Under the pieces are notes generated by a model, which had not been told where the DNA came from, ran no database searches, and worked only from the letters and a program-made list of their open reading frames with translations. Positions 10,970-63,296 of a stretch of 64,000 nt of DNA are shown here, piece by piece. This DNA is from Octopus vulgaris. Lineage: Eukaryota. The stretch is from the NCBI GenBank assembly GCA_951406725.2, contig OX597814.1:159464001-159528000 (forward strand). Direction: 5' to 3'. The position numbers were made by a program, and so were the translations under genes. Within the stretch, counting starts at the first letter, position 1, and every line of letters starts with the position of its first letter.

Positions 10970-11336
10970 CAATAAATAACAATGAGAAGTTGATCATTGA
11001 TATTAAAAGGTCATAGTTTAATTTTAGTTCAGAACCATTTACAGCTGTTTCTGTTTATCAAATCGGAATAAATTTGCATTTATCTCGTTCCATTTAACAA
11101 GCATCGTCAAGCCTAAAGACTTAACAAACATTTTCCGTTTTCTTTTGCCTTTTCCTTTTCCTTTCATTTTTCTCCTATTTATATTCCTCTAAATCATTCT
11201 GACGATGTTTGTTAAATGGAACGAGATAAATGCAAATTTACTTTGATTTGATAAATAGAAACAGCTGTAAATGGTTCTGGACTACAATTAAACTATATTT
11301 TAATACCAATGATCAACTTCTCATTGCTCTTTATTG
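10970..11336. repeat. Inverted repeat (arms of about 140 bp, spacer of about 90 bp) containing hammerhead motifs
   Basis: 10970-11109 is the reverse complement of about 11200-11336 with few mismatches. Confidence 0.95.
11192..11276 (+). ncRNA. Type I hammerhead ribozyme (predicted intact)
   Basis: Stem I AATCATT/AATGGTT; core CTGACGA (11199-11205); 12-bp stem II TGTTTGTTAAAT/ATTTGATAAATA; GAAAC; palindromic AC-AGCT-GT stem III; GTA cleavage triplet at 11267-11269. Confidence 0.8.
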
Positions 11337-12340
11337 GTCCATTTCTTTTCTTTTCTATATATATTAAAACCACAGTTTTATATTTAAATTACCAACTACT
11401 GTATACCTTTTAGCTAGGACTATACATATTGAGGTAATACACCAGTAGTGCCTACGGATACATTTATCCCTTAGATGGTTGCATAACCTCTAACTCATAA
11501 TTTTCTTTATATATATATATATATATATATTGGAGTAAAATATTCTTTGTTATGCCATATAAATGGTCAGAAAGTTACCATTGGTTTCATGTCTACTATT
11601 GCTCTAGGCAATATAGAAGACATGTTAGCCAGAAGAACATTTTTTCTTTAATGCTGGAGGTAAATTTACAGTCTTAATTAGTTTGGTGTTGAAAAACAAA
11701 ACAAAAAAAGTCTTAATTTTTTTCAAGAGGAAAAGATTTGCTTCCCCTTGTATGATTCAGCCATGACTAAAAGTGGCCAGTTGTACCTACATACATTATT
11801 TCCTGTTCTCTCTAGTCTACAAAGAAGACCACATGTCCAAAACAAATTTTCTGTTGTAGGGCTAAAGGTCTAAAACTATCACTTTATAAGTTCAAGAAAG
11901 CACCAGGATCATGCAAACTTGTAGGATTATTGTCCTCTCAGCTAAGCAAAGTTTACACTATCTGCTTCCATTGAGGTATAACCCAGGTTGTTCCAGAAGC
12001 TTTCAAATAATTTTGTATGACATCCCTTCCTCTTTTAAACCAATGTTAACTTTCTGATTGTTTCTATGCCATAACCAAGAATATACTACTTGACTGTATA
12101 AAAAGTATAACTGCTCAATATTTTTTTTAGTGTGCTTTTCTGACCTATGGACAACTAACTGATATATACATGTCAGATGTGCACGCGCGCACGCACACAC
12201 ATTATCTCCAGTTGCTTAATAACTTATACAAAAAATGTAGGAAATATAAATGCCTAGGTAATTTGCATAATTTAAACAAAAATGAGCTCAGAAAAATAAT
12301 TCAGTGGCCAGTAGTCTGTATTATATATATATATATATAT

Positions 12341-12537
12341 GGTGCAGGTGGCACGTAAAAAGCACCCACTACACTCACGGAGTGGTTGGCGTTAGGAAGG
12401 GCATCCAGCTGTAGAAACATTGCCAGATTAGACTGGAGCCTGGTGCAGCCTTCTGGCTTCCCAGAACCCCGGTCGAACCGTCCAACCCATGCTAGCATGG
12501 AGAACGGACGTTAAACGATGATGATGATGATGATGAT
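12341..12537 (+). mobile_element. Young RTE-tail repeat inserted next to (TA)n, with (GAT)n tail
   Basis: CpG-rich copy closely matching those at 1604, 36405 and 50595. Confidence 0.85.
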
Positions 12538-12799
12538 ATGCGTGTGTGTGTAAATTAGAGAAAAACCACTATTATACAATTCAAACAATGATAGACGTAA
12601 ATCAGACCATATAGAAAAAATAAATGATACAATAAAACATTTAACTAGATCACAATAAAGTACATAATAATAAAATAGTATATAATTACTAATTATATAC
12701 TATTTCTCTAATTTATATATTTATATTGTGAAATTTGATTTATTACTAAATTGAATTTTTCCCTGTAAGTTTGGATTTATACTCCCTAAGATTATTATC

Positions 12800-12814
<15 letters not shown>

Positions 12815-12855
<41 letters not shown>
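12815..12855. repeat. (TA)n microsatellite
   Basis: Read directly; others at about 11507-11530, 13187-13221 and 32509-32540. Confidence 0.95.
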
Positions 12856-12859
<4 letters not shown>

Positions 12860-12989
12860 AAAGTTAAGGAATGGAATAAATAAGATCTGGGCTACATATG
12901 TTTCATAGTGAGTGGAACGGCAGAGGGTCTGCTCACTATGAAACATATGTAGCTTGGATCTTATCTACTCCATTCCTTAACTCTTGTAT
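12853..12989. repeat. Foldback with arms of about 60 bp carrying hammerhead 3' halves on both strands
   Basis: AGTTAAGGAATGG...GCTACATATGTTTCATAGTGAGTGGA-loop-TCTGCTCACTATGAAACATATGTAGC...CCATTCCTTAACT. Confidence 0.9.
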
Positions 12990-13183
12990 TCTTATTCGCA
13001 TACCTGGCAACCCTGGTCGCCTACTGTGAAATATAAAAAGAACTTTTTTCAGTTTGTCACACTTAGATATAAAAATAATCCACAGTCTTCTGTCTCAATA
13101 AACCACTATTGTCCTTGTAAGTTTTTTATGTTTACTATGGATTGTTTGAAGCTAACTTTCTTCCTACACTTCAATCCCTGGAT

Positions 13184-13225
<42 letters not shown>

Positions 13226-13611
13226 AAATAACGAGGGTGATAAATTGAATGTTAATTTAATTAACATCAATTTAAAACCAGTAGCCTAGCATATAGAAAA
13301 ATCTGAAAATTCAGAACAATTGTAATACATGCATATAATAGGGATGACCACTTAGTGGACATCCAATATGCTAGAAGAAGATCACCTACAATCTAACTAC
13401 AAAGAAAAGAGTGTTCTCTAGAGAAATTCAGCAAAAGTGCACTTGCTTTCAGAAGGCATCAACTTTTCCAAATACAATTTCTCCAATGTAATTGCTATGG
13501 GTGGGACTGCAGTATTTATGGGCCAAGGATCTAAAACAACAATTGGATAGGTGCCTTGTCAGTCTACATTGCCTCAACGGGTTACGAAAGTGCAAGAGTT
13601 ACTTGTATTTC

Positions 13612-13914
13612 TTTTTTTTACAGAGTCCCCTGTTTTCGAGTACGGAGATTCTGATTCTGCAAAGTGAAAAAAAAAGGCATTTGAAAATTTTAATCCCCCC
13701 CCACATTCTTCATATTTGCAAAATATGTAGAAAAATATGGAGATAATCTCTGTACTTTTCTACGTATTTTGCCAAAAAAAATTCTGAAAAAAGTGAAAAT
13801 TGAAGAATTTGGTGGGTGGGGGTAGAATTAAAATTTTGAAATGCTGGTTTTTTGGGGGTTTTTTGCAGAGTCAGAATCTCTATTCGAAAATGAGGGATTC
13901 TGTAAAATAAAAAA
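13612..13914. mobile_element. Foldback MITE-like element
   Basis: Outer arms TTTTACAGAGTCCCCTGTTTTCGA...TCGAAAATGAGGGATTCTGTAAAA; inner hairpin GCAAAATATGTAGAAAA/TTTTCTACGTATTTTGC. Confidence 0.75.
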
Positions 13915-13949
13915 AATTATTTTTTAAATGAATGTGGGTGCAGTCCACA

Positions 13950-14761
13950 TTCTTTACGTCTGCCTGCTCATCATCACAAAAGGCAAAAAAGAGAAGATAG
14001 AATGAATTTTGGGCATTTATGTCCTTGAAATGGAAAAGGCTTGGTGCACACAAGCTGTTATAAGAAAATGGATTGATTTAACTATGCCACTTGTTTTACG
14101 TGGGTCTCAAAGAGGTCTTTTAGTCTGGGATTCAGCCAGTACTCATTGCGCAAAAGATATGAAAACCTTCCTTTCTGAAAGAAGAATTGACTACATAATG
14201 ATTCCCTCGGGAATGACTTCATATTTACAAACATTAGATCTTGTAATAAACAAGCCCTTCAAGGATTATTTGCGGATGGAAGTGAATGGATATATCAAGC
14301 ATAGAAACTTTGTCAAACCTAACCTCTAAGAAGTCATGAACTGAGTGAAGAATTCATGGAATAAAATTACTGACAGTTGCATTGCCAATGCATTATGAGC
14401 AGAGTACTTGGATAAAAAATATTCATTTAAAGTAAGTTATATTGCCAAACATGAGAGATTGGAGTTCATGATTCTACAGGAAATGGATTTGCAAGAAATT
14501 CAGTATTAAGACTGGGGTTTGATGATTTATGATGATGTTCCAGAAGAGGACAAAATGTTTTTACTTGACTAAAAACAATAAGCAAATAAATAAACTTTTG
14601 ATAATGTAAAACATGGATTTTCTTTTACACGAGAATACGAGACATTTTTGTTTTCTTGGATTTTTTCCACAAAAATATGACATCCCCCCAAAATAAGCTA
14701 TAGTGCGTTTTTTGGAGGCAAAATTAATATAAGACCAGGTCTTATTTTCGGGGAAACAGTA
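13950..14761 (+). mobile_element. Decayed pogo/Tigger-type DNA transposon, 3' half (DDE_1 transposase fragment)
   Basis: ORF 14009-14329 has LLVWDSASTH and IPSGMTSYLQTLDLVINKPFK; flanking stops; ends GGTCTTATTTTCGGGGAAACAG-TA like a TIR plus TA target. Confidence 0.85.
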
Positions 14762-16840
14762 TTTTATCAGGAGTATTTATGATAAATAAGCTAGTTGACT
14801 CCTGTAACACATGGTTCAATTATAAATAAATAGACCACATCAGGATCTAAAGCATGTATTGTACAGTGGCTCATGAATAATTTATTAATTAGAGCCAAAC
14901 ATTAATTAGTTTTGTATTTATGAGTGTTTCACCTATGTTGGTCTGTTTAAAGAGAAGAGCTGTTTTGCCGACATGGTAATATAAAGTCTGTAGAAGAGAA
15001 TTATTTTTCATTTTCTGAACACCAGATTTTAATTGTTTAATTCCTGTGTTAGTTAAAGGAGGTACTGAAAAGTGCATGTCTCTCTCTTTAAATAATATCA
15101 TATCTAATTTAATTTATTCAGCCTTTATATTACAAAGTGATTCTATATCATAAATTATAATAATTATAACTGCCCTGAAGTTATTATTAATGTGAAATCT
15201 AGGTTTAATTTTTATAAAATTTTCATTTGGCCACCTTGCGATAATGACATACTGTTTTCATTTTCAATTTCCTTTCAGTTTTGCAAATAAATTATATCAT
15301 TAACATTAATGTTTGAATAATTACAATATTTAAATTGAAGTTAACTTTTTAAACAGAAATAATAATTTTATAGCAAACGAAGGAATTATTATTGAATTAT
15401 AGCAAGAATATTTTTTTGTCGATGCTCAATCAAGAACACAAAGCTCGTATGTTTAATTTACAATGAATGAAAATAGCATCATAGAATGGAATAGCAAATC
15501 CATGAAATAAATTAACAATTACAGAATACAATTAGTGGTTCCTGATATTGAAGGACTGAGGAAACGCCATCAAAAGTGAAAACTAATAAACTACTGACAG
15601 AAAGGTTTCTGCTAAAAGTAAAAACAGTGTTATACTTCATGATCACATTTTGTTTCATAAATACCAAAAGTATTTTGTTGAGCAAGATTATTCTAGTAAC
15701 CAAAGTAGTGTATGGTACATATCCTATTACCTTCAGAGAACTGTGCTTCATGTGAAAAAATTAATTGAAGAAAATGATATATCATTTAAACAACTATCAA
15801 CAGAGGAAATAAAAGATGGTTGTATATTAAAATTTTCAGCAATTTATCTTGATACACATTTAATGTTTTGTCTATGTATACTTTGTTTCTTTTCTTTTAT
15901 TCTTTTAATATTCTATCTTGTTTATGTCTATATCTGTCTACTGTGTCTCTGCTGTTTGTCTCTCAGAAAACACAAGAAAAACACCTGATCTTTAAATCAA
16001 TTCATTTTATATGTATGTTACAGCAATACATTTCAATAACTACTGCACAATTTGTGCCTCAACTGCATCACCTCATCAGAGAAATTAAAAGATTGCTACT
16101 TCTAAATTTTTTCGATGAGGAATGGATTTACAGACATGTTATGTTACTGTACTGTAAGTTGAAGTGGCAGTTAACATTTCAACCATCTGTTTTCACCTCT
16201 GATAAATATTAAATCTCAAAATATTGGTAAAGTTTTTTATTGGTTTAGTCTTTGCCTTTGTAGGCTCTCAATAAGCACCTTTTATTTCTTATCTGAAAAC
16301 AGTTGAACCATAGCTTATGGTTGAATAGCTAATACCACAATGAAGCTCCAACTATTAAAATCCCTTGTCCCATTTATGGCAGTGAAGCAGTCTCTATGTA
16401 ATTACTTGACTTGTTTGACAGAGCAGTCAAATATTTCTCAACACATATTCTACTACTGCTTTATGAAGAAAAGAAAAAAGGGACATATTGAATAATATAG
16501 CCCTAACTACCCCTGAAAATATAGACTGATCCTAAATGGAATGCCATGGATCATACATCTGCTCAGTTAGGGTTCACATGGGGTAACACAACAATACTAC
16601 CAAGTTGTCCTATCAAAAAATCCAAATATATATAAAACTGCCTATAACACTGAGGAGTAAATGTAAAATAGTCGTAATGAATTTCATTATATTTTTCAAA
16701 CAATTCTTCATTTATTTATTTTTGCTTTTATTTCCAGCATGAGTACTCAAGTGAAAAATCTATAAATGAAATTTGGAAACCTTTTATGAGCTTGGTTTGA
16801 GTGAATATTGTTGCTGACAGCCATATACCATCATACCATC

Positions 16841-16922
16841 ATGACAGAAGAGAATACTAGAAAGAGGAAGTTTTTTGTACTCAATCTTATCATTAGATTA
16901 TGGTGTATCATAACAGTCATAG
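16841..16922 (+). CDS. TMEM72: TMEM72-like protein, coding exon 1 (MTEENTRKRKFFVLNLIIRLWCIITVI)
   Basis: Acceptor tttccag at 16737, ATG at 16841, donor AG|gtaaat; 82 nt, phase 1. Confidence 0.75.
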
Positions 16923-18292
16923 GTAAATGCTTTTCTTTTTCTGTTTTTAACGTAATTAATCATTGATATCTTTGTTAATTCTGTTATAGAGTTTAATGTA
17001 ATATTAATTGGCTGGGTACTTCTCTCATCCCTATCTCAATTTCCATAAACTTTGGTCATCCAAGATCCGAACTACTGTAACCTACTAACATCACAAATGA
17101 GCTGACAAAGGAGTCGCTTAGCAGTTTCTCGTCCTACTAAAAATAGTTGTTAAATCTACCTTAAATAACACTACTGCCTTAAAATAGGCAGGACACATTG
17201 AATATTGTAGTTCAAAATGGCTGAAAACAACACAGGATGGTCATAGTTGGAATACTTTTGATCATAAGTTTGCTAGAGTTAAACACTGCAAACACATCAT
17301 ATTCTGCCTCAAACCAACATACCAAAGATCATCGAATTCTCTCTCACTACCAAACTCAGCCTTTACCCAAACATCAATGCCTCTGCATCTTTTAGATTGT
17401 TTGGACATGGCTTAACTCTTTAGCATTCAGATTTTTCTGTCAAATGTAATACATATTCATTGACATTGATTTGAATTAATCATGCATTGTCTTGTAGCTT
17501 TGAAGTTTCAATTATGTGATTGCTTAAGTTTTGAATGACATTGTTAGGTATATGTAATAGGCCAGATTTGGCTAGTTTGAACATAAAACAGGTAGAAAAT
17601 TGTGGGACGGATATGGCTGGTTTAATCAAGGCAATACATCACTTCTACCTAATGCACCCATACCAAAATACTCTAGTAATCTTGTAATCATCTATCTGAA
17701 CTCAGAAGAGGAGACAGCTTCTATATCTACTGACATGCAAACTTATCCTAATGACCAGTACATAGCTGAGGGTACCTTAAATCTACTGAGGTACCATCTG
17801 CATTTGTAGGCTTCTATTTACCTTTTTTCACCAAAACCTTAAGTATGATGTTAAATCTGCTGGCCAATTCTTCCACCTTTATGAAAACACCTAAAGAGTT
17901 TTGATCAACTTGGACCCCAGCTGTCTTCTTAGATAAAAACCACACCAAATTCTTCTCCATACCACTCCAGGCTATACATTACCTGAAGTGTGATGTCTGG
18001 ATGTTGCTCAGCTGCACTACAACTCATCAGAAAAAGTAACCAAAACTGCATGAACAGTATATTGAATATGCACAGGAAGTGAACAGCGAATGTATTGAAA
18101 ACAAAAACAACAGCAGAAAAAAAAAAAACGGGGTTTGTTGGGCATCAAGTATGCTACTGGCTAATTTCAGGAAGCATGGTAGTTTTGAAAGATGTTGTAT
18201 CTCAAAACTTCAAGTAACATGGTTGTAAGACTTAGATCTATATCACTTGAAGTAATTATTAGTGTTAATAATAATGCATGTAAGTAAATATA

Positions 18293-18657
18293 TGCAGGCA
18301 TGGCTGTGTGGTAAGAAGCTTGCTTCCCGGTTCAGTCCCACTGTGTGGCACCTTGAGCAAGTATCTTCTGCTATAGCCTTAAGCCAACCAAAGCCTTGTG
18401 AGTGGATTTGGTAGATGGAAACTGAAAGAAGCCTGTCGTATATATGTATATGTTTGTGTGTCTGTGCTTGTCCCCCCACCATTGCTTGACAACTGATATT
18501 GGTGTGTTTATGTTCCCTGTAACTTAGGAGTTCAACAAAAAGTAACCAATAGAATAAGTACTAGGCTTACAAAGAATAAGTCCTGGGGTCGATTTCTTTG
18601 ACTAAAGGCAGTGCTTTAGCATGGCTGCAGTTAAATGACTGAAACCAGTAAAAGAAA
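18293..18657 (+). mobile_element. tRNA-derived SINE (family A)
   Basis: Colinear with 23236-23630. Confidence 0.9.
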
Positions 18658-18999
18658 CAATAATAAAACAAAGAAAATTCTTTAACCTATGAATGATTAA
18701 AGATGTGTTAAAGAATTTTTTTCATCTTATTATTTGGATTATTTATTCTTCACCTATCCACTTCATGGTGTGATTGTTGTGAAACTTGGATTTTCTGCAC
18801 CTGAAGAATGCCAGCATTGGCCAGGAACTGATGGTGCTGATAACCTAATATTTGGGTCAAGTGCTTCTCTGGAAATATCTTAACTTTACACCCTACTAGG
18901 ACCTTAGATATTTATATGTGAATATATTTATGTATGTATTTAGTATATTCTATTTGTCTTATGGTAAATTATACACACCCACTCATTTTCTTTATATAG

Positions 19000-19072
19000 T
19001 CCTTTGGGTCGTCAGCATCAGATTGCTAAAACGTGATAGGACGAGGCCATTCGCTATCTCATGGTATCTAAT
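19000..19072 (+). CDS. TMEM72: TMEM72-like exon 2 (VLWVVSIRLLKRDRTRPFAISWYL)
   Basis: tttatatag| ... AT|gtaagt; 73 nt, phases 1-2 fit neighbours. Confidence 0.8.
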
Positions 19073-19221
19073 GTAAGTATAAATTTCATACATTTTTTAA
19101 CCATATTTTGTATATCAGAAAAATCAACTTCCTCCATAATCTTAAAATTAACTGATGGAATTTATTTCCTTCCGTAATTTCTGACTAAGAAAATAAAGCA
19201 TTTGAAATATGATTTCAAAGT

Positions 19222-19500
19222 ACTATTCTATATTTCTGAGGTGAGGAATTATTTACAATGGACAGGTAAGTGTCCTCACCTTGTTTGTTATCACGTTTCG
19301 GCTGACATACTCTCCAGCATTCATCAGGTAGGTGTTCTGGTGGAATTTCGAACCCAACCCTTCATTTGACTAATGGGGTACACTGTTCTCATTCTTAAGG
19401 TATGTTGCTGATGTTATTATTTTTCAAGTCCTTGCCTGAAATTGAACTTAGAATCTGAGGGTTTGTAGCCCATGCTCTTATCCACTATATGCCTGTGGGC
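19222..19500 (-). mobile_element. tRNA-headed SINE with hammerhead motif (older copy)
   Basis: tRNA-like head 19500-19430, CTGATGA...CAGCCGAAACG at 19327-19294, tail matching 63215-63296. Confidence 0.75.
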
Positions 19501-19729
19501 AATTATAGTGAATTTTAGGGCTTATAAACCTAGTATTTTATCTTTTCTTAATACTGGTTTCCATATTACATTCATATCTTAGGTTATTGTGTCCTAGCAT
19601 TTGTGCAGCCTCTTTTAATTTTCATATTTTCCAGTGGTGTTCTCTCTCAATTATTTTAACTTCACCCATAGCAGGATATGCTCTAACCTTTCATCCTCTG
19701 ACACAAGTTCCCTCCTCAAATGCTCCTGC

Positions 19730-20055
19730 CCCTCTCAAAATTCCTTATCTTGCAAGTTACTTGGTGACTCTGCCAGTGCAGGTGCCATGTAAAAAGCATC
19801 CAGTCCACACTGTAAAGTGGTTGGCATTTGGAAGGGCATCCAGCTGTAAAAATCATGCCAAAACTAACCTTGCCTGTGCTAGAGCCATATAAAATGCACT
19901 GAGTCCACTCTGCAGAGTGGTTGGTGTTAGGAAGGGCATCCAGCCATAAAAACTCTGCCAAAACAGACACAGTAGCCTGGAGTAGTCTTCTACCTGGCCA
20001 GCTCCTGTCAACTGTCCTACCCATGCATGCATGGAAGATGACATTAAACAATGAT
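19730..20055 (+). mobile_element. RTE-tail repeat with internal duplication
   Basis: Two GTGGTTGG...GAAGGGCATCCAGC units and the common tail. Confidence 0.75.
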
Positions 20056-20359
20056 GCTCTGTGTTAATAGCCCTTGCCTGTTTTTCAGGCGTTTTTTTTT
20101 GTATTTCACAGGTCTTCAAAAGCACAGGGCAGTTGGTCATAATGCAAACAAGAAAATGTCAACATCAATACTGCTTCACTCAAACAAGCCTCAAATTGGT
20201 CAACAAATGGTGATAGTATAGATAACAGACAACTTACCCAAGCTCCTATGTAATAGGAATGGATCTGAAACCACATAGTTGCAAACAAAACTTTGTAAAT
20301 ACAGCCATGAGTGGTCAGTCCATATAACTTCATAAGGAGAATAGGGCCCATTTCTCTGG

Positions 20360-20543
20360 TGTATATATTCCTCCCAGGACAGGACGCCGGTTCATCAAAG
20401 GATTAATAATTTTTTACTGGCTGAGTGGACAGGAGCAGCATGAAATGAAGTGTTTTGCTCAAGAATACAATGCATTACCCTGTTTGGAATCAACACCACA
20501 ATCTTATGATCATGAATCCAACATCCTAACCACTAAGCCATGC
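20360..20543 (-). mobile_element. tRNA-derived SINE (family B), diverged
   Basis: Reverse complement GGCATGGCTTAGTGGTTAGG...TTCTTGAGCAAAACACTTCATTTCATG, as at 32176. Confidence 0.7.
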
Positions 20544-20633
20544 CTATATAAAAATATCTTTTGTGTATGGGTTTGCAAACTTGTTTTTGAATTTATATAT
20601 CCTGTCCTTTCATTTGTAAATGTTTTATTATAG

Positions 20634-20699
20634 GTCTGCAACTGTAATTGCAACCATCTTAGAATGCATTTGGATTATGAACAAAATGCCTTGGTGTCA
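20634..20699 (+). CDS. TMEM72: TMEM72-like exon 3 (MSATVIATILECIWIMNKMPWC)
   Basis: ttattatag| ... CA|gtaagt; 66 nt, phases 2-2. Confidence 0.8.
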
Positions 20700-21309
20700 G
20701 TAAGTATTTTATTTCTGTGAATTCTTTTAAAACAAAATTTAGTTCCTGAAAATAAATTACTTTAGTTTGAACATTTTCTTCTATCACTTGGTCCATGGAA
20801 AATGAAGTGCCCAACCTAGTTTTTATGAATCTTCATAAGGTTTTGCAGAGGTTTGCAATTCTGGGAGAAGGATAAAGTGAAACATTTTGTACAGGAATTT
20901 GCAGGAGGTAATATACCTTCAGCAGGTGAACTTGGGTGGGGTTCAAATTCATCTGAGGTCTGATTTAGAGGAGCATAATAGTAGAGAAGACAGGACACAG
21001 CATGTTGATGGACTAGATATTAGTGAAGTGGACAAGAGCTTACAATATACTGGTGGGCTGGTGGTTAGGTTACTTGTTTCTGTTAATTTTCAATATGAAC
21101 TAAATTAAAGGCTTTTATTAAAATATAATGTAACTTAATATATTGGTATATATTATGTTGTTAATCATATCAAATCTTAATATTATTCACATTATAAAAT
21201 TCTGAAAATTTTAAATTAAAATTTGAACATTTCAGTATGACCAAATTGGAATTGGTGTTAAAAGGTTAGTTGTGTTTTAATTGAATAAATTTTTGTTTCC
21301 TGTCTTCAG

Positions 21310-21446
21310 AGAGAATGGTTGCTGCTACTGTGTCTGCTGGAAAGTAGTAACATTTGTGAGTAAATGGAAAAAAGGACTTCTTTACATAGTGATGTCTTTA
21401 CCGACTTTCTGGATCTCTAAAGACACTACTGATGGTCAAATTGGAG
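21310..21446 (+). CDS. TMEM72: TMEM72-like exon 4 (QENGCCYCVCWKVVTFVSKWKKGLLYIVMSLPTFWISKDTTDGQIG)
   Basis: tgtcttcag| ... GAG|gtaagt; 137 nt, phases 2-1. Confidence 0.85.
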
Positions 21447-21821
21447 GTAAGTATTAATGAATTACTTAAATGTAAGAGTAAACTGTTCCAAATATATGAT
21501 AAATCAGCTTAGGAAGCATTGAGTAATTGTTAATTTTTTTCATAACAGAGCACTATATTTCATACACTCTTTAACATGGATCTAAAGAATTTTTCTAGAT
21601 ACCAAACCTATTCACAAACGAGATATAATCTTGGTTCTTTCCTAGCATCAATTCATATTGAACAGAGTTTATCTTATACTTCCAAGTATATCACAGCATC
21701 CTACATTTTCTGTTGTGTACCTATTTGACTGAATCTCCTAACACTCATCTACACATTTCTATTAATCTGACTGTATAAAACTTGAACACTCTATACTGAT
21801 TATCTCTTATTTTATTCTACA

Positions 21822-22158
21822 CTAGCACTATAACCCAGCAACGCCAGGTCATAGTGCTAGTGCATGCATGCACACATACACGCCAGTACTGTCCAAATCT
21901 CCAACCAATCACATACAGCTAGCTGGCATATCAAGTTTCAAGCATTTTGATTGGGTTTTGGATAGAAAATTCACAAAAAAGTAACTTCTATTGATTTTTT
22001 AATGCCTTTGCGGAATGACTGGGGAAATGTAAAGATGTGCATGACCACCCTTGGACGGTTTTGAATGACCATAGAAAGTGTGAGCCCTCTAACTGAAAAA
22101 TTGTGGATTTGTATAAAGGACACACACGCAGACATTTTGCCGTTTATATATAGAGAGA
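21822..22158 (-). mobile_element. Non-autonomous Helitron-like element
   Basis: On the - strand: A|TCTCTCTATATATAAA start, subterminal GC-rich hairpin, CTAG|T end; no TSD. Confidence 0.65.
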
Positions 22159-22418
22159 TAAAGAAGCTGAAACCATACTTTAAAGCTAAGTACATGGTAA
22201 ACGTCAAGAAAATCTATGTAAATGACAACTTCCACATTAATTTTTCCTTACATTCCATTTTTTTTAATATATTGAAGTTTAATGGTACTGTCACTGGACA
22301 ACAAAGACAGCCTATAAGATATACATGTGTAAGAAGTTTTAGTTTTTAAAGCCCCAGGATAACCCTGATCCTGCAGACATAAATATATTCTGACAATGGC
22401 CAGCATATCTTTCCCTTC

Positions 22419-22867
22419 TTAACTCTTTTGTTCCCATAATTCTGTTAAAAAACACATTGCTGTTGTTTCAATTAATTTTTAAAATAATGAAAAACTTAGT
22501 AAAATAACTTTGTTATTATTAATCAGGAGTTTGGAAAATAAATTAACGTGAAATGTTGATATTCTGTTTAAATTTAAATCACTTTAACCCTTTCGTTATT
22601 GTATTTATTTTGAGATGCTCTCTGTTTCTTTCAATTACTTTAAATATAACAAAGAATTTAGTAAAATAACTTAGTTATCATTCAGCTAGTGTTAGGAACA
22701 TAAATTGTGACTAAGGCTTGGTGGAAGATTTTAATTCAAAACTTATGAAAACAAAACATTTGTACTCAGAGCCAGTTTCAGCCGGATTGTAACGAAAGGG
22801 TTAAAACAAGAAGTTTGTATCTAAGAATCAAAGGCAGTATTAGGTGGGTTAGTATCAAAAGGGTTGA
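22419..22867. mobile_element. Older TTAA MITE hosting a younger one
   Basis: TTAACTCTTTTG...CAAAAGGGTTGA; related copy at about 29178-29400. Confidence 0.7.
22584..22804. mobile_element. Young piggyBac-like MITE
   Basis: TTAA TSD, 11-bp TIR CCCTTTCGTTA/TAACGAAAGGG; close copy at 60647-60864. Confidence 0.9.
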
Positions 22868-23235
22868 GAGAAAAGTGTGATTTGAAGATTTATTGGGTTA
22901 AATATGGTAAACACTAGATTCTTGATGCTAATAACTACAATCTTGGTCTACTTCCAATTAGATATAAGAGCCTTATGATCCCTTAGTATAAAAATCAAAT
23001 GAAAGACAGTAAAAAGTTAAACTAGACCTAACCTATACCAGACAGTAGAAGAACCCTACATAACTAGGGCTGCAAATGGGGATAACACTGATATGCTGAA
23101 GAAAGTAAAACTACAGAAAAAACAAAAAACAAAGAGTATATAAACTATACAAATATTACAATAACTGAAATTTATCTGTTATCAGTTGCTCTACTGGAAA
23201 TGATCATAGTCTTGACATTTGTTTGTACATATATA

Positions 23236-23630
23236 GGCTCAGGAGTGGCTGTGTGGTAAGTAGCTTGCTAACCAACCACATGGTTCCGGGTTCAGCCCCA
23301 CTGTGTGGCATCTTGGGCAAGTGTCTTCTGCTATAGCCTCGGGCCGACCAAAGCCTTGTGAGTGGATTTGGTAGACGGAAACTGAAAGAAGCCTGTCGTA
23401 TAAATGTATATGTGTGTGTGTGTGTATGTTTGTGTTTGTCCCTCTAGCATTGCTTGACAACTGGTGCTGGTGTGTTTACGTCCCCGTCACTTAGCGGTTC
23501 GGCAAAAGAGAACGATAGAATAAGTACTGGGCATACAAAGAATAAGTCCCGGGGTCGATTTGCTCGACTAAAGGCGGTGCTCCAGCATGGCCGCAGTCAA
23601 ATGACTGAAACAAGTAAAAAAAAGAAAGAA
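23236..23630 (+). mobile_element. tRNA-derived SINE (family A), young full-length copy
   Basis: A box TGGCTGTGTGG, B-box-like GGGTTCAGCCC, TG microsatellite, A-rich tail. Confidence 0.9.
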
Positions 23631-24018
23631 AGAATATATATATATATGTTAAAAAAAAATTAGTTTCAAAATCCAATCTTCTTCCAGAAAGATACCAAAG
23701 GTTGCATATTCCCCACCCCTAATGTAGACAGTCCCTTATTAATTTAAGCACTGGAGAAGCAAGTGCCTATTGGCTTAGTAATGCATATGGACTAAAACAA
23801 GTGGTCATTGTTGTGAGATATAAATTCAAGTTCACAAAATCAGACATTAAATTTCTAAAGTTGTAATTTATCATTTACAAATTCAAAGTTTATATGTAAT
23901 AATTATTATGACCCTAACTGTGATGGTCAAAACAAATTAAAGCAGATGTCAATGATGACATTGAAATTTCTATTATTGTGTCAGTGGTTAATTCAGTAAA
24001 CTTTGTTCTGATTTTCAG

Positions 24019-24221
24019 GTTCAATGCTCCTAATTGCAGGAATACTACTAATTTTTAGAAGCATATTTTCATTATTCTTTCGCGAAGACTCAGAAGAGCG
24101 TAAATACTTTTTAAAAACCAATCCTGTCCATGTTAAAATGGTATCACATGAAATCTCTACACAAACTGAAGACTCAGAATATTCAGCTTATCATCATGAT
24201 GTTGAAAGCCAAAAGAAATGA
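24019..24221 (+). CDS. TMEM72: TMEM72-like last exon (GSMLLIAGILLIFRSIFSLFF...HDVESQKK*)
   Basis: attttcag| phase 1; TGA ends at 24221; GSMLLIAG matches recalled vertebrate TMEM72 GSMLIITG; total CDS 561 nt = 186 aa. Confidence 0.85.
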
Positions 24222-24272
24222 GAGTAAATATGTGTAAATTGTTTCGTGAAGTTTGTTTTCAAAAGTTGTACA

Positions 24273-24278
24273 AATAAA
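24273..24278 (+). terminator. Candidate polyadenylation signal of the TMEM72-like gene
   Basis: First AATAAA after the stop codon; lies in A-rich sequence. Confidence 0.35.
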
Positions 24279-24599
24279 AAAAAAATTTTTTAATTTAAAC
24301 TTGTTCTTCAAATCTATATTTAAATTATTAACTTTTATAGCTGTTAAGATATTAATTACAAAAGCATTCTTATTCATTTGTAAATATAACATATTTGAAA
24401 CTGATCACTCAAGTTCATAATGTAACAGAGAACAACAAAAATAGAGAAAGGCCAATGCAAAATCTTTGTATTCAGGTAAATAGGGTGGAATTTAAGATCA
24501 ATTGACAACCATTGAGGGTCAAAGAAAAGATATTGGAAACCCTTAGGCCAATCATGCTACCATTTTTGTGCTAGAAAGAGACAGTCCCTTTATGAATAT

Positions 24600-26230: not shown

Positions 26231-26236
26231 TTTATT
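26231..26236 (-). terminator. Candidate polyadenylation signal of the Polycomb-like gene
   Basis: AATAAA on the - strand about 750 nt after the stop, followed by a TG/TA-rich downstream element. Confidence 0.5.
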
Positions 26237-36057: not shown

Positions 36058-36232
36058 CTACAATTGAAAAGGACAAGAAATAATAGAAGAATTTGCACAA
36101 ACAAAATAATAACATATTGCTTAAAATTTCTACAAGTTCATCTTAAGATGTTTAAAAAAAAAATCGTATCCTTTCTAATCACTAATATCATCATTTAATG
36201 TCCATTTTCCATGCTGGTATGGGTTGGTCTTG

Positions 36233-36353
36233 GCTTACAGCACCTAGTTTTCTCAAGTGTTCACTCATCTAAATACTAACTAGACTTGACATTGCTCAAC
36301 TGCAGTGATCAGACAAGAGCCAGTGCTTTCAGTATGATATTGCGTGTTGTAAA
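36233..36353 (-). pseudogene. Degenerate 5S rRNA copy
   Basis: ...ATATCATACTGAAAGCACTGGCTCTTGTCTGATCACTGCAGTTGAGCAATGTC...GTTAGTATTTAGATGAGTGA...GGTGCTGTAAGC aligns along the full length of animal 5S rRNA, with mostly transition or CpG-decay changes. Confidence 0.85.
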
Positions 36354-36404
36354 AAAAGAGGGACATTAAAAATAAATGATTTAATGTACTTTCATTATTT
36401 GTTA

Positions 36405-49439: not shown

Positions 49440-50137
49440 CTGCAAAATAATTAAATTTTAAAGCCTTTCACAGTAAAATAATTGTATTGATTTCATTTGG
49501 ATAATTTCTGAAGTTAGAAGAAAGAATGATGCTAATCTCAGAGTTTGAGAACTGGCCTAAATTACTTACATTAGACTAGAAAGTATCAAAGGTATCTAAG
49601 GACCAGGTGATGGATTAAGTCTACCACCAAAGAACAGGAAGTTTCTGTGACCAACTTCCACATAGTTTTTGCTTACCAAATTACACTCACAGGACTTGTG
49701 CCAACCTGAGATCATGGTAAAAGACACTTGCCAAGGTGACATGCAATGGTATCAAGTCTGAAACCACAAGGCCAGTGCACTGAAATGATACCATCATATC
49801 CCAGTTATGTATAGATTATGCAAAGATGAAAGCAAAGTTAACTTGGGAGATGTGAAATAAAAAAAAAAAAATAATAATAAATAATACTAGTCAGACATGG
49901 TATCATTTCCTCATGTAGCAATATTATGTATTTCTTACTCAGGCTTTGTGCCTGTGTAAGTTAGTAAACTAGAGTGACCCTCATTTGGTACTTATATATT
50001 TCATCAACATTGGAAGAATGAAAGACAAACTCAATATATATATATTTTTGTCGAGAGATTGAACAGGAACAGAGTCAGTGTTCTACAGCTGTCTTTTCAC
50101 TTCATAAATCTTATTCCATTTATGTTTACAATAGGTT

Positions 50138-50525
50138 CAGGCATGGCTGTGTGGATAGAAGGTAACTTCCTAACCATACAGTTCCAGATTCAGTTACACT
50201 GCACAGCACCTTGGGCAAGTATCTTCTACTATAGCACTGGGATGACCAAAGGCTTGTGAGTGAGCTTGGTAGATAGAAACTGAAAACCCTTTGTATATAT
50301 GTTAGTATTCCTGTGTCTTGTCTTGACAATGTGATGGAAAATGAATCTGTGTCATTCATTTAAAATGTTCTATGAGAACATGTCTAGTCATGGGGAAATA
50401 TTACCTTGCTTAGAAACATGTGAGAGTTGGCAACAGGATGGGTATCCAGCCATAGATAAAAAATCTACCCTAATAAACCCTGTCCAATTCATGCAAGCAT
50501 GGAAAAGTGGACATTAAAATAATGA
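50138..50525 (+). mobile_element. SINE with family A tRNA head and RTE-type tail
   Basis: GGCATGGCTGTGTGG head; GCATGGAAAAGTGGACATTAAA tail; similar at 51560-51830 and 61380-61710. Confidence 0.7.
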
Positions 50526-50594
50526 GGATTTAGTAAGATTTGCAAGATGAAATGTCTTAAGTACACTAATATGTTTGGAATATCCTTGTCCAAA

Positions 50595-50977
50595 TCATCA
50601 TCATCATCATCGTTTAACGTCCGCTTTCCATGCTAGCATGGGTTGGACGGTTCAACTGGGGTCTGGCAAGCCCGAAGGCTGCACCAGGCCAGTCAGATCT
50701 GGCAGTGTTTCTACAGCTGGATGCCCTTCCTAACGCCAACCACTCCAAGAGTGTAGTGGGTGATTTTATGTGCCAGACGAGGCTGGCAGACGGTCACGCT
50801 CGAATGGTGTTTTTTATGTGCCACCGCCACAGGTGCCAGACGAGGCTGGCAGACGGCCACGCTCGGATGGTGTTATCAGACGGTCACGCTCGAATGGTGT
50901 TTTTTATGTGCCACCGACACAGGTGCCAGACGAGGCTGGCGAACGGCTACGATCGGATGGTGTTTATTACGTGCCCA
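50595..50977 (-). mobile_element. Young RTE-tail repeat with expanded internal minisatellite
   Basis: (CAT)n start on +; three to four copies of GTGCCAGACGAGGCTGGC...CACGCTCGAATGGTGTT. Confidence 0.85.
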
Positions 50978-52685: not shown

Positions 52686-53177
52686 CTTTAAGATATTGCC
52701 TAAATAGAAAAGACCATCATTCCATCTGGCAAGAACATCTTGACCAACAGAAAACATCAGTTTCCTTTTATTGTTAGAATTCTTGTTGCTGTTATCACTT
52801 GACTTGAAGTTGACAGGACTGCTGTTGCCACTACTCATACTGCTATTTGTAATGGTATCTGTATCAGATGTGCTTGGAGTAATTACTGCACTAGAGACTG
52901 GGGTATTGTTACCAATGCTGTTGGTATAGTTGTTGTTAATAGCCTTAAAATGATATTCCATATCCATATCACCATCAGTATCGTGAATCTTTTTATCTAA
53001 ACTTGTTTCTCCATTACACAGTTGCTTAGTAACACTAACTGTTGTTCCATCCGAAGACATGTTAGTTGAAGAAGCAACAGGGGACAGAGAAACATTTAAT
53101 CCATCACTATTAGAGTTAAATTCTTCATTAGCTGCATCACTGCAACCATCCAAATAGCAACAACCATTGCTGGCCAT
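52686..53177 (-). CDS. Pcl: Polycomb-like coding exon 1 (MASNGCC...; S/N/T-rich N terminus; Tudor start [23 protein letters not shown])
   Basis: Acceptor ttatttcag at 53207, Kozak-like CACCATGG, donor AAG|gtataa; 492 nt; total CDS 2193 nt = 730 aa. Confidence 0.92.
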
Positions 53178-56100: not shown

Positions 56101-56493
56101 TACAAAGCTTCAAACTAAGCATCAACATTCATCAATCTCAATAATCTCTGAGGACCCTTTAATGTCATAAGCGTGACTCCTCACTTGATTACCTAACACT
56201 GTAACAAATAATCATTTCTAAAATACTTCTCAGCAAAAAAAATCTACTCTTCACAAATTTCTAACCAGAGCACTGATATAGCATGAGGTGTAATAATGGT
56301 TTAATCTAACAAGTTAAATAACACAATAAGGTAATAAGACTGTATACATAAATTGTATTTGTTGAATATTACCTGACAAGTAATCTTTAAAAAAAAAATT
56401 TACACTTAATCTTTGTTAAACACTCATAACTGGAATGACAAGCTATTGTCCATAAATATGCATGTCTGTGTGAATGTAGGCAGTGACAAATTA

Positions 56494-57571
56494 TGAGGGT
56501 CACCTGAAAAATTCATAGGCTGACCAAGATACTCTCATGAAATGACTAAATAAAGTTTACTTTTCAACGTAATCCTCCTCATGGTCCATACACTTCTATC
56601 AGTATTGCAGTGCTTGGATCCCATTGGTGAAGAAACTTTCATCATGTTGTTTAAAGAAGTCATTAACAGCAGGTATGACATCATCATCACTATGATACTA
56701 CTTCCCATGTTAGGGAACAGGTGATAGTGAGATGGAGCCAAATCAGAATAAGAAGAGTGATCAACAGTGATGCATAGCTGCTATTGAAAGCAATGATTTG
56801 TGTACTAGAGCATTATCCTGATGAAACAAAAGCCCTTTCATCACTTTTCCTGGGTGTTTGGTTTTGATGGTGTGGTCAATAAACATAAAGCCTTTTGTAT
56901 CCCAAAAAAACTGAGGCCATCACCTTTCCTGCAGATGAAACGACCTTGGCCTTCTTGGAGCAGGTGAGAATGAGTGTTTCCACTGCATGAATTCTCTTTG
57001 TCTCTGGCTCAAATGTTGAACTCAACACTCATCATGAATCGGGAAACCAACAGGATCTGTCTCCAACAATGTCTGATTTTTCCAAGATGTGATCAGCTTG
57101 ATGCACTTTTGATCAGGTGTCAGAAAATGTGACATCCACTGAGCAGAAACTTTTGTCATGCCAAGTACATTGTGCAGAATATTCTCATCTCTATTGGGAT
57201 ATGCTAACAACATTGGCTATTTGATTTATAGTCAACTGTTTGTCATCCATCACCATGTGATGGACACAATAAATATTTTCCTAAGAGGTGACAGTTGTAG
57301 GACATTCAGACATCATCTTCAAAACTATCCTTTCCCTTCCTAAATCCAGCTGCCCACCTTTGCAATGTTGATAAAGCTGGAGCATCTTCCCCTAATGTAG
57401 CAAGCATGTCCAACACCACAATGCCAACTTTTGTCAATTTCAAGAGAAGTTACTACTAGTTATTTTTGAAGTCTTCTTCAAACAGTCAGATGTCAGTTAA
57501 TGAATGCAAGATTTCAAAGCTCTAGCATCACTCCTTCATAGTCAGCCTGTGAACTCAACAGTACACCCTTG
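56494..57571 (-). mobile_element. Decayed mariner transposon
   Basis: LGMTKVSAQWMSHFLT (WVPxxL motif) and APSHYHLFP (YSPDLAPSDYHLF motif); degenerate TIRs TGAGGGT...ATAGGCTGAC / GTCAGCCTGT...ACCCTTG. Confidence 0.85.
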
Positions 57572-58809
57572 CATGGGAAGGAGTATTTTCATTGTAATAA
57601 TTTAGCCATTTCTTCATATTCTGCAGGCATAGCCCACTAAGTTTTACTAAGCCTGACTATAACATTAGCATTAAATTAAATTCTTAAACAGTCTATTCAT
57701 GAGGAAATATAAATGTTGATTGTGTAACAAAATATTCATTTACACTGAGCTAAATGAATGAACACTCAACTAAGATACAACTGGACACTGCTGCAACATG
57801 TTAATTCCACTTTCATTGTTAAAGTTACCAAATTTTTTGATAAGCATTTAAGTTCTTATGACAGTTCAGAATAAGAGATAGCTGGCACTACAACAAATAC
57901 TAATATGTGTATACCTGTATGAAGGTGTTAAGAATGTATTACCAATTGTTTGGCTCAAAAATGGTAGATTAAGAATGTGTGCTGATTACAAGGTACATTT
58001 AAGTAACAGGACTCAAACTTTCTTGTTCAAGTCATCATGAAACAGTGTTTACAGATATGCGAAGAGAAAAATTAATCTTCATCAATAGATATAAAAATGC
58101 ATGGTAGCAGACTGATGTGGATGAGGGCCCTTAAGAGATGGTATGCAATAAATACAAGCAAGTGGTCTTAGTCAATTTGGGTTTCAAAATAGCTGTTCCA
58201 TTGGAGTCTATACTGAAGAGAATAAATGGCATAGTTACCTATCAAAATGGTATGTTTCTTTTAGCTGCAACCTAGCATTAAGAATAGAGGAAATGCAATT
58301 ATTGCTAGATGGAAAGGAGCCAATGTATCAATTAATCTAATGAAATACATTAAAATTATGCATTTTTCAGGGATTTCCAAGGAATGAATTTTCTAAGGTT
58401 GAGATAAAATTATTATATAGTCATGAGAAGATCCTAAAAGATGAAAATGAGAAATTTAGGGTTGATAATCTATCTTCATTTTATACTAATATTGGCAGAC
58501 AGCTGAAGCTCTTATTACAGCAAAAAAATATATTTACTTATGAGAAAACAAAAATATTTAGCCTCGAAGCTTTTCATACCAGAGATCAATCATCAACTAT
58601 TGTAATTAATTTTTTCAAAAGAGAGTGATTCTTCTAGAAAGTTTCTCAGGATCCACAGATGGGACTTTATATTATTACATGAATTCAAACCATTCACATA
58701 TCTGGTGAAAATCAATCACCATATTTACATTGATCTTCTTACATGACTAAATATGACTCACATCAGTTCTTCACAAAAACATATTTTCACACTGGTGATG
58801 ATGGATTAA

Positions 58810-59880
58810 TTTTCCTGATGCTAATACAGCTGAATATATTAAAAATAACTTTAACATATACAACCTTTATATTCACATAAAGAACTTCATTGCTAGAAAA
58901 AGTAGCTCCCGACTAACTCTTTTAGAACAATAACTGAAAGACTTCACAGCAGAGAATTATCCTACTTTTAATAAAAATAGGCTACTTATTGTGCAAAAGT
59001 TCTTTCTACAATTCATAACATACACACAAATACTTAAGAAAGCAACAGCTTGTGTTTGGTGAATCTATTTTAGTTGAATTTTATCATAATTTGTGACTAA
59101 CATGCTAAAATCAGATTTAAAGGCACTCCTTGGTCTGGCAAATGGTCTGAGTCACAGACTTGGAAAAATTACATATAGCCTGGAGATGTAAAAGAATGAT
59201 GATAATATATTGGTCATAACTGACTCACCTATTGTTCCAGTAGAGGATAGGAAAACTGAGGTGCTGATTTTTTGTTTACCCCTTCGATTTGGAGTTCCAA
59301 TGACAATGCTAGCATAAAATGGGTTGGAATTTATTCAAAGGAGTGATTTTCTGATGCTCATACAGTTGAATATATTAAAAATAATTTTAACATATAAAAC
59401 CTTTATATCAACATAAAGAACAGGATTGCTAGAAGAAACAGCTCCAGACTAACTCTTTCAAAACAATAACTTACAAGACTTCACTGCAGAGAATTATCCT
59501 ACCTTTAATAAAAACAATTAATCCTGAAACTTATTGTGCAAAAGTTTTTTCTACAATTCATAACACATGCACAATGACTTAAGAAAGCAACAGCTTGTGT
59601 TTAGTTGAGTTTTATACATAACTTGTGAATAGTATGCTAAAATCAGATTTGAAGGCACTCCTTGTACTGATAAATGGCCTGAGTGACACAGACTTGGAAA
59701 AATACATATAGCCTGGAAATGTTAAAAACATGAGAATATATTGATCATAGCTGACTCAGCAACTGTTCCAGTAGAAGCTAGGAAAACTAAGGTGCTTATT
59801 TTTCATTTCTCCCTAGATTTCAGGTTCCAATGACAATGCTAGTATACAATGAGTTGGAATTAATTCAATTAAAGGAGTGA
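58810..59880. repeat. Diverged tandem duplication with units of about 535 bp (58810-59346 and 59347-59880)
   Basis: Both units start TTTTC(C)TGATGCT.ATACAG and end AAAGGAGTGA and are colinear. Confidence 0.92.
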
Positions 59881-60646
59881 ATAGACTGACATAATTGCAA
59901 GAAAATGGAAATTATAGTTAAAAATTTAATGGTGCAGTAGAAAGAACAATGAAAGCAATAAAAATAAACATTGAAAGTTTTCAATTTGCAGACATACTAT
60001 GTGCAAGTATCGTTAAGTGAGAAATTAGTTGATAGTTAACAAGGTTGGCCAAATGGTTCATTACAGGAACAATATAATGGAGTTTCCATTAGATACATGT
60101 TATTTAATCCATGCTGGTAGAAGCATAGTCTGAATTAGATGTCAACATTGTTTTCCCATCCACTTTCTCATGCTCATGAAGATTGGATGAACTTGGTTGA
60201 GATTGACTTTCAACAACAGGATGCACCTACTGCTGACAACCCACTCCTGTTTCTGAGTCAGGTAATATTTTCTCTTGGCTGGAGATGTTTTCAAAATGAT
60301 TGGAAATGAAGGACACCCCTTGCATGATGGTTTATAACTATCATGCATTAACACACACAAAGGAATCTCAAAGGAATTCAGAAGCCACAAAGATATAATG
60401 ACTATTACAATTTAACTGTTAAGGTTAGATTAATATATTTAGTGTTCTAACAACTTACTTATTTCATTCGCTAACACACACACACACACACACAGCATTT
60501 AACACTCCACTTTATGTGGTTAGTTATTCAAATTCCTAATACTAGCCTCAATGACCTAAAACTATTTAGTTTTAATACAAATCAACCTTTGTCAAAAATG
60601 AACTCTATTAATTGTAAATTTAAACTGACTGAAGTTAAAAACAAAG

Positions 60647-60864
60647 TTAACCCTTTCGTTATTGTATATATTTTGAGATGCTCCGTGTTTCTTTCAATTA
60701 CTTTAAATATAACAAAGAATTTAGTAAAATAATTTGGTTATCATTAAGCTAGTGTTAGGAATATAAATTGTAACTAAGGTTCGGTGGAAGATTTTAATTC
60801 AAAACTTATGAAAACAAGTCAATCATACTCAGAGCCAGAGCCGGGTTGGTAATGAAAGGGTTAA
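60647..60864. mobile_element. piggyBac-like MITE
   Basis: TTAA-CCCTTTCGTTA...TAATGAAAGGG-TTAA; close match to 22584-22804. Confidence 0.9.
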
Positions 60865-61907
60865 GCTGATGATTCCAGATCAAGATTGAAACAAGTCTAA
60901 ACATTGTCATACACCTCCCAAAGATTAGAATGCCCTTTTATCACTCATGAATTTATTCATAATTTCTTGAAATTATCTCTTCTTATTATTGAGTCAATAA
61001 CTATTGCCACTAGGTTTTTGTTTTTCTTCTGTAAGGAAAATTTTAATAAGGATTTACATACACAACATTCAGTACACATCATCCTTCACTTTATATATAT
61101 AATGGGCTCTCCCATTAAACAAGACATATGAGCATCTAACTTTTGCTAAATGACCTGCACAAACGATTTGTTTATAGTGACCAAATGTATGTGCTGTACA
61201 TTAGCTCACTCCCTCCATCAAATCAACGTTTCCTGAACAGGTGCACAACGTACCATGTGTCAGGTGTCAAAGTGATCACAGAGCAACATGAGATGAAGTG
61301 TTTTGCTCAAGAATGGAATGCACCACTCAATCTAGGAATTGAAACTATGATTTCATGATCATGAGTGCAATACTCTATAGACGTGACTGTATGCTAAGAG
61401 GTTTGCCTCCCAACCATATAGATGAGTCAAGCTCCACTTCATGGTAACCTTGGGCAACTGGATTTGATAGATGGAAACTGAAAGAAGCCTGTCATTCATT
61501 CATGTATGTTTGTACATAACTATCAACTTGACTAGACTTCATGTAAATGAATGTTATCGTCATGCAAATGTTGTCTTTCATTTCTAATCTTCCTTGAAAA
61601 CATGACTAGTCATAGGGAATCAACAAGAAAGGCATTCAAATGTACAAAATCCACAAATTTCATCTGATCTATGCAAGCACAGAAAAGTGGATCTTAAAAA
61701 ATGATGATATGTACATACAAACACTTTAAAGTAACAAATTTTTATATCGTATTTAACTTTTTTGACAACTATTTGTGTTAACATTTTCACTTGTAGCCAA
61801 TAAATTTCTTGAAATAGACCAACCTATCTTTATAAGTTATTACAAACCAAATGGGTACTCTCACATCACTGATTCTATTTTATGTTCCTATCCTAATGAT
61901 GATAATC

Positions 61908-62220
61908 ATCATTGCTTAATGTCTTTTATCATGCTAGTACAAGTTGGATAGTTCAATAGGAATGGAGGCACCAGAGGACTGTACTGAGCTGCAATATCTG
62001 TTTTGGTCGGATGCCCTTCCTAATGCCAACCACTTTACAGGGTATACTGGATATCTTTCCTGTGCACGAGCACTAGTGAGGCCACAGAGTAACTTGTAAA
62101 ATAAGACCCTTTCAACAGTGTAGCATTGAAGGGTGGCTTTATGCTAGGTGTTTAAGATATTAAAGTATGATAGAGGGTCAGGAACTGGTGTCTTGCTGAA
62201 GAGGAGATACATGGTTTCCC
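61908..62220 (-). mobile_element. Diverged RTE-tail repeat
   Basis: GGATGCCCTTCCTAATGCCAACCACTTTAC; colinear with 2281-2630. Confidence 0.65.
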
Positions 62221-62746
62221 CAGTAGGAAAGAGATAATAGACACTGACAATCAGAAATCGTGGATGGGTAACTTTGTGAGTATGAGTGTGATAGATAGTT
62301 AAAGATGGGAATAAAGTAGTGAATAGTCAATATACATATTATCTTTTTAGGGTCCAGGATAAAGAAACTGACTTATACATCACAAAATTAGCTTAAATAG
62401 TTTATTCAGCTTTTATCACAGCACAATAATTATAACTGCTTATGCATATGTAGCGAGAGAGACTCCTTTACCACTCATCTAGATAATGAAGTTCAGTTCA
62501 CTAGAACCCCCAAATTACCTCCCTTCAACTATAATTGACATTTTGTTTGTTGAGAGCCTCAGATCCTCACTAAGTGTTTTTCTTCTTACTAAAAAGCACT
62601 TAACCATTAATTCATGTATAAGCTCACTTTCATGTCTATCTCCTACAGTTCCAACTATAAGCCACTTAAACATTACGTAATGGCATATACATACACAAAA
62701 CAAGAATCCTCAATTTGGTTGATATTGTTACAATGTTTCATTTGTT

Positions 62747-63296
62747 GTGCCCTCCAGTCTTATTTGGGTACCAGTTATAATTCATAATGAATTTGGAACC
62801 ATTATTTACATTTGAACTCATCTTGTTTGTTAACACAATGTTTCGGCTGAGATAGCCTCCAGCCTTCATCAGATGTCTTGGGAAAATTTCGAACCTAGAT
62901 TCTCATTCTTCTTATTATTATTCAGGTTACTGCTTGGAATTGAACTTGGAATCTTGGGGTAAGTAGCCTGCACTCTTAACCACTATGCCATATGCCTACG
63001 GGCATAATAAGAAGAAGAATGAGAACCTAGGTTCGAAATTTTCCCAAGACATCTGATGAAGGCTGGAGGGTATCTCAGCTGAAACATTGTGTTAACAACA
63101 AACAAGATGAGGTCAAATGTAAATAATGGTTCCAAATTCATTATAACTGGTACCTGAATAAGGCTGGAGAGCACTGATGAAGGCTGGAGGGTATATCAGC
63201 CAAAACATCGTGTTAACAACAAACAAGATGAGGACAAATATCCATCAAATGTAAATAATGTTACATAATTCCTCATCTCTTAAATACAGAACTGTA
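62747..63296. mobile_element. Hammerhead-bearing tRNA-SINE locus with inverted and tandem duplications
   Basis: Arms 62747-62918 and 63004-63174 flank a tRNA-like head (-); hammerhead motifs at 62832-62877 (-), 63048-63093 (+) and 63171-63214 (+). Confidence 0.8.

Follow-up and report, generated by a model that had tools for sequence, protein, structure and literature searches.

Why does a short stretch of the Octopus vulgaris genome carry several sequence-unrelated families of hammerhead ribozyme motifs, most of them located in inverted duplications? The question is raised by a window of 64,000 nucleotides (positions 159464001-159528000 of contig OX597814.1, within a 2.8-Gb genome; the window is the whole stretch analyzed, and coordinates below are counted from its first letter). 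An earlier note on this DNA had described three families, at 11192 (here family A), 12905 (family B), and 62832/19294 (family C), as ribozyme-processed retroelements integrated by hairpin priming. Analysis of the window, and of sister copies drawn from the same genome, points with good probability to a different origin: old, 5'-truncated insertions of three families of Penelope-like elements (PLEs) and of one non-coding repeat (family D), whose inverted arms would have arisen by priming at both cut target strands from two fixed sites in the element RNA.

A strict scan of the window for type I hammerheads yielded one match, whereas 200 local dinucleotide shuffles averaged 0.005, and the pattern GAAA plus 8-nt palindrome plus H occurred four times (shuffle mean 0.55, maximum 3), these occurrences being two mirror pairs, i.e., two independent loci. 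The strict match at 11192-11276 (plus strand, family A) is the sole intact type I hammerhead of the window, featuring the core, three stems, and an NUH site: stem I comprises 7 bp, CUGACGA lies at 11199, stem II spans 52 nt, GAAA is found at 11258, and stem III is palindromic, with a predicted cut after 11269. It is also the only intact one of the seven motif copies in the loci named earlier. The family A minus arm at 11117 shows an altered C3 and ends at stem I, which breaks the motif, CUGANGA is absent from both arms of family B at 12905, and in all four family C copies either stem III or the core is broken. An Rfam scan of the window matched no hammerhead family at E<=5. The motifs described earlier are real. 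Among sister loci, the full motif (intact core and palindrome) was present in 16/29 for family A, 9/29 for B, and 14/28 for C, including the ACGT palindrome that had been predicted for family C.

Inverted arms were recovered for family A (11013-11109 versus 11200-11296, 93% identity), family B (12857-12912 versus 12932-12987, 89%), and family C (62818-62921 versus 63004-63107, 92%), which agrees with the earlier observation that three of the four loci are foldbacks; the locus at 19294 is a single arm. A fourth foldback, absent from the earlier note, is the longest in the window and belongs to family D (5342-5690). Every one of the window's four foldbacks that are long, close, and non-simple is a member of a hammerhead family, which agrees with the enrichment in inverted repeats expected in the earlier note. 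Their arms diverge by 7-12%, as for neutral repeats. The idea that each family is fixed as an inverted duplication did not hold: an adjacent head-to-head arm was found in 9/28 sister loci of family A, 11/29 of B, 23/28 of C, and 5/19 of D, and inversion in these families is common, not fixed. A first-look genome search gave 401, 1628, 4080, and 2306 candidates for families A to D, respectively, which are not copy numbers, and only 40 candidates were scored per family.

In families A, B, and C, the hammerhead sits in the end repeat of the element, downstream of an open reading frame (ORF) for reverse transcriptase (RT) and GIY-YIG endonuclease. The clade names used here, Neptune for A and B and Penelope/Poseidon for C, were assigned from domain order and linker and are putative. 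Walking upstream in families A and B revealed an RT piece, a CxC linker, and a GIY-YIG domain with CCHH motif, all on the strand of the hammerhead; the RT-motif pieces were located upstream of the end repeats in loci L196 and L199-L201. These RT pieces had no Pfam match. The family A piece has 1500 relatives, and full-length relatives of 700-800 aa show the same order of RT, linker, and GIY-YIG. The endonuclease pieces of A and B align to the C-terminus of protein P0005 (E=3e-13 and 6e-7), a weak, sub-cut-off Pfam GIY-YIG match was obtained for only 2/12 relatives, and no homologue was returned when the family A endonuclease piece served as query. GIY-YIG/CCHH motifs were seen for families A-C. 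Among named proteins, those closest to the RT of one element were from octopus. Two octopus database entries, P0001 ('GATA zinc finger domain-containing protein 14-like') and P0002 ('uncharacterized'), correspond to fragments of this family of PLE RTs.

The family A insertion consists of a short-tailed minus arm (10965-11109), 5'-truncated at the hammerhead core and with a broken motif, and a long-tailed plus arm (11109-11507) that ends in (TA)n. The family B foldback (12856-13185) lies within (TA)n and comprises a short minus arm (12856-12918) and a long plus arm (12924-13185), each of which was truncated downstream of CUGANGA and retains only half a hammerhead. (TA)n adjoins the insertions at 11192 and 12905, in line with the two (TA)n-adjacent loci of the earlier note. 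Runs of (TA)5+ were found at 21/34 arm ends of A, 25/42 of B, and 4/70 of C against a background of 1.6%, counts that may run somewhat high since scaffolds ended in TA and family A has a short inner TA run. A CxC..C..C linker between RT and endonuclease was seen in both families and is also shared with Nematis; according to PMC8557442, a zinc-finger-like linker at this place marks the Neptune clade. By the definition given there (linker, domain order, and microsatellite bias), the sequences of families A and B qualify as putatively Neptune-type. A family A pair was encountered at L025/L128 (C14, 23.50 Mb), the arms of which share a start point, a private deletion, and 10/12 variants, with approximately 260 nt of other DNA lying between them.

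In family C, the sequence beyond the tail enters a PLE ORF, with an RT piece matching Pfam RVT_1 (E=4e-8), and the stretch near 19.6 kb in the window matches the endonuclease end (E=2e-13). The single arm at 19248-19684 (minus strand, within an intron of a gene on the plus strand) carries a short tail, a minimal and decayed hammerhead, a tRNA-like head at ~19415-19494, and, directly upstream of this head, the decayed end of the endonuclease ORF (19547-19675). The head contains A-box- and B-box-like motifs at tRNA spacing, read against the consensus boxes. Neither Rfam nor ARAGORN called it a tRNA, ARAGORN finding none in 29 loci or the window. Among paired family C arms, 27/70 start at the head, where the scaffold also ended, and 26 of these 27 heads lack the element's native upstream sequence as judged by eye. 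This suggests that family C may be transcribed from an internal, tRNA-type RNA polymerase III (Pol III) promoter. A separate tRNA-derived short interspersed nuclear element (SINE) with a fixed palindromic centre was considered and rejected, since palindrome and head belong to the coding element, the head lying between ORF end and hammerhead (L098; window 19.4-19.7 kb). The available parts of PMC10886601 and PMC6962438 contain nothing on PLE-mobilised SINEs.

Family D consists of an approximately 346-361-nt tandem unit (L206 and L219 show periods of 346 and 361 nt) that carries one type I hammerhead, whose core has U3-A8 and lies upstream of the part retained in the window. The foldback at 5342-5690, formed by a long-tailed minus arm (5342-5541) and a short-tailed plus arm (5533-5690), is accompanied by a target-site duplication (TSD) of ~13 bp. 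Family D is likely a non-coding repeat with the same insertion layout as the PLE families. In three of the five paired D sister loci (L207, L216, and L222), the short arm halts at one fixed point, just beyond the previous unit's long site, as though a single tandem or circular RNA had yielded both cDNAs.

The geometry of the arms bears directly on how they were primed. The 165 loci of families A, B, and C contained 73 distinct head-to-head pairs, their arms pointing 3'-outward, plus a single convergent pair that is doubtful. In each family, the arm 3' ends form two clusters, a short site and a long site, and a pair usually has one arm of each. As a fold-back copy is nested in its template, the long-tailed arm must, under hairpin priming, also reach furthest 5'. 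However, in the 50 long-plus-short pairs, the short arm extended further 5' in 23, about equally far in 13, and less far in 14, and in nine of them the arms scarcely overlap. Simple hairpin priming thus fails as a general rule. The dense set of ribozyme-bearing retroelements postulated earlier stands with regard to element class and density, but mostly not with regard to its mode of integration. For family D, the short arm was further 5' in 6/6 pairs, and pooling C and D gave 21 short-further pairs versus one (p=1e-5), a bias that symmetric later deletion would not produce. TSDs of 9-18 bp were found in many family C pairs.

These results would be accounted for if the PLE enzyme cuts both target strands, each of which then primes one cDNA, one per RNA site. 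The two cDNAs would stop early and be joined at their 3' ends, often via short matches, and occasionally a cDNA would fold back, copying itself and the flank. The ribozyme would be a passenger in the resulting stubs, whereas in source elements it would probably cut tandem transcripts as a like-with-like dimer. A snap-back of 6-9 nt at family C junctions was also considered, but is indistinguishable from a simple short-match join.

Such a fold-back is apparent in the insertion at 62.8 kb, which is bounded by a 12-bp TSD (62790-62801 and 63296-63307) and encloses three arms. The left, short-tailed arm (62802-63006, minus strand) extends to the start of the tRNA-like head, its hammerhead stem III being CpG-decayed. 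The middle arm (63004-63174, plus strand) is a reverse copy of the left one that skips the head and continues through ~50 nt of the left host flank, the flank at 62747-62800 being copied inverted at ~63128-63174, inside the TSD-bounded insertion. It then joins a separate long-tailed arm (63174-63295, plus strand) starting at the hammerhead core. The middle and left arms diverge by ~8-11%, similar to the divergence between family copies, so the middle arm is probably as old as the insertion. A true fold-back thus took place here on top of a second priming. In the pair count, the locus was chained as one pair and scored as short-further.

Hairpin self-priming, whereby a single strand folds back, the second arm is nested, and exceptions reflect later deletions, can claim this inverted copy of arm and host flank, the 27/50 pairs compatible with it, the private variants shared by family A arms, and some junctions located on native mini-palindromes. 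Nevertheless, we consider it unlikely, given that 23/50 pairs and nearly all directional pairs of C and D run in the opposite direction, that nine pairs scarcely overlap, and that host-flank capture was clear in only 1/73 pairs, with one further ambiguous case. A ready-made palindromic unit, MITE-like (miniature inverted-repeat transposable element) or of the fold-back element type, or a later DNA rearrangement would agree with the inversion of 23/28 family C sister loci and with the many centres at one point. This origin is scarcely credible, since junctions vary between loci, copies of A, B, and D are mostly single arms, the arms differ by a fixed tail, and a single TSD bounds both.

Several observations also weigh against priming at both strands. 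The 62.8-kb locus requires a fold-back step, 23/73 pairs were left unclassed, and families A (4 versus 5) and B (4 versus 8, neither significant) do not discriminate by themselves. Paired family A arms share 43% of variants compared with 6.5% for unpaired arms, a result as compatible with fold-back or gene conversion as with one shared RNA; the same test was uninformative for B (8.8% versus 7.2%) and weak for C (10.7% versus 3.7%). Furthermore, a later deletion at the palindrome centre could shorten either arm, and the sister loci, being the top 20-30 matches per query, are a non-random sample. Regarding the ribozyme itself, no compensatory changes in the stems emerged among 18 family A copies (95% of cells paired, 0 pairs changed on both sides); dead copies of one master would not be expected to show them. 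Priming at both strands remains our preferred reading, and we lean slightly towards the wider proposition that all four families integrate in this way from two RNA sites, that a cDNA may copy host flank, and that one family is driven by a Pol III-type promoter.

The palindromes had further been proposed to restrict dimer cleavage to like copies. Computed stem III duplexes amounted to -13.1, -9.0, and -3.7 kcal/mol for like pairs and -0.3 to -3.6 for mixed pairs, and stem I duplexes to -3.5 to -6.1 and -1.1 or weaker, respectively. Cross-family cleavage is thus predicted to be unlikely, which is in line with the proposal; however, stem I is family-specific too and alone would block such cleavage, and the palindrome need not be given a special role. 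Being on opposite strands, the arms of a foldback cannot dimerise, and when the read-through RNA of locus A is modelled, its GAAA core is paired to the opposite arm, so that the foldback should silence the ribozyme.

With regard to the host, exons of a plus-strand spliced gene were located at 16738-24291 and seen in contigs from two studies, the source runs being presumed to be RNA. The loose end of one contig matches an exon with a GT donor ~7.8 kb upstream of the window (L202:1981-2231); on this single contig end, positions 1-16737 (plus strand) are probably part of one intron of ~24.5 kb that starts at L202:2232 and holds foldbacks D, A, and B. Plus-strand read-through RNA was predicted to fold at -214, -110, and -289 kcal/mol, and the three foldbacks would probably form long duplexes. 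That the host keeps or uses them as double-stranded RNA for A-to-I (adenosine-to-inosine) editing or silencing would fit their probable position in one intron and the strong predicted folding, but is very doubtful: the arms have diverged like neutral repeats, no sign of selection emerged in this analysis, and no editing signal was separable from cross-mapping copies. As contigs over the repeats mostly derive from other copies, the lone A>G (at 11067) and T>C (at 11256) were not taken as editing. The suggested link to cephalopod RNA editing, which would matter more if supported, has no support beyond the probable intronic position.

The spliced gene possibly encodes a small membrane protein, and its exon at 16738-16918 contains stops in each of the three frames, so it may not code for protein or may be broken or misassembled. 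Exons of an MTF2 (Polycomb-like) gene with Mtf2_C and Tudor Pfam matches lie at 26981-53237 on the minus strand. The window also contains a degraded 5S rRNA copy (36232-36354, minus strand; 49 bits, exceeding the Rfam gathering score), a DDE transposase fragment (14006-14329, plus strand; Pfam DDE_1, E=9e-12) adjoined by short inverted repeats at 13608-13915, and other abundant short repeats with many copies (e.g., 1588-1797, 9151-9490, 12342-12537, and 50594-50964), some with internal 90-100-nt tandem duplications.

Hammerheads and layout are ordinary for the PLE class, and the families described here may already be included in supplementary lists of PMC8557442, PMC4209133, or PMC13282606. 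The available text of PMC13282606 lists PLE families of an octopus and makes no mention of ribozymes in that part. What the arm geometry adds is a cheap genomic test by which self-priming and two-strand priming can be told apart, and the outcome points to two-strand priming. If true, two-strand priming would account for the inverted copy and the one-sided tail of PLEs, both of which have long lacked an explanation, and PLE insertion itself would create hairpins in introns and duplicate small pieces of host DNA in inverted orientation. Our literature search found no paper linking two-strand priming or arm geometry to PLE inverted copies.

[quoted passage not shown] The tails measure ~150 nt in A, 200 nt in B, and 55-65 nt in D, compared with the published 30-40 bp, which family C fits (~35-40 nt). 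The origin of the inverted copy was stated as unresolved in PMC8557442 (section 15) and proposed to be self-priming in PMC3846280; whereas these papers propose self-priming or endonuclease resolution, the arm geometry favours two primings. The green anole Poseidon enzyme cuts and extends both strands in vitro and begins synthesis at two internal sites of the RNA, which set the tail (PMC11167929), and the arm pattern of the present loci fits this behaviour. Its hammerhead also overlaps the ORF start region and is dispensable for insertion. That study draws no link to inverted insertions, and family C differs by the tRNA-like, putative promoter head in its end repeat.

The minimal and short-stem-III type I hammerheads published for the end repeats of animal PLEs (PMC4209133) likewise feature a palindromic stem III and proposed dimer action, with several families per genome, an extra nucleotide before stem II as in C and D, the U3-A8 variant as in D, and opposite-strand pairs 100-700 bp apart. 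In contrast to those forms, the stem II regions of A and B span 52-58 nt and their palindromes 8 nt, and position 10.1-11.1 is occupied by U-A or G-U rather than G-C. Finally, family D resembles the animal non-LTR retrozymes (PMC7229834; bioRxiv 10.64898/2026.07.22.740005) in its ~350-nt tandem unit, single type I hammerhead, dispersal, and large TSD, whereas families A-C differ from retrozymes in being the ends of coding elements.

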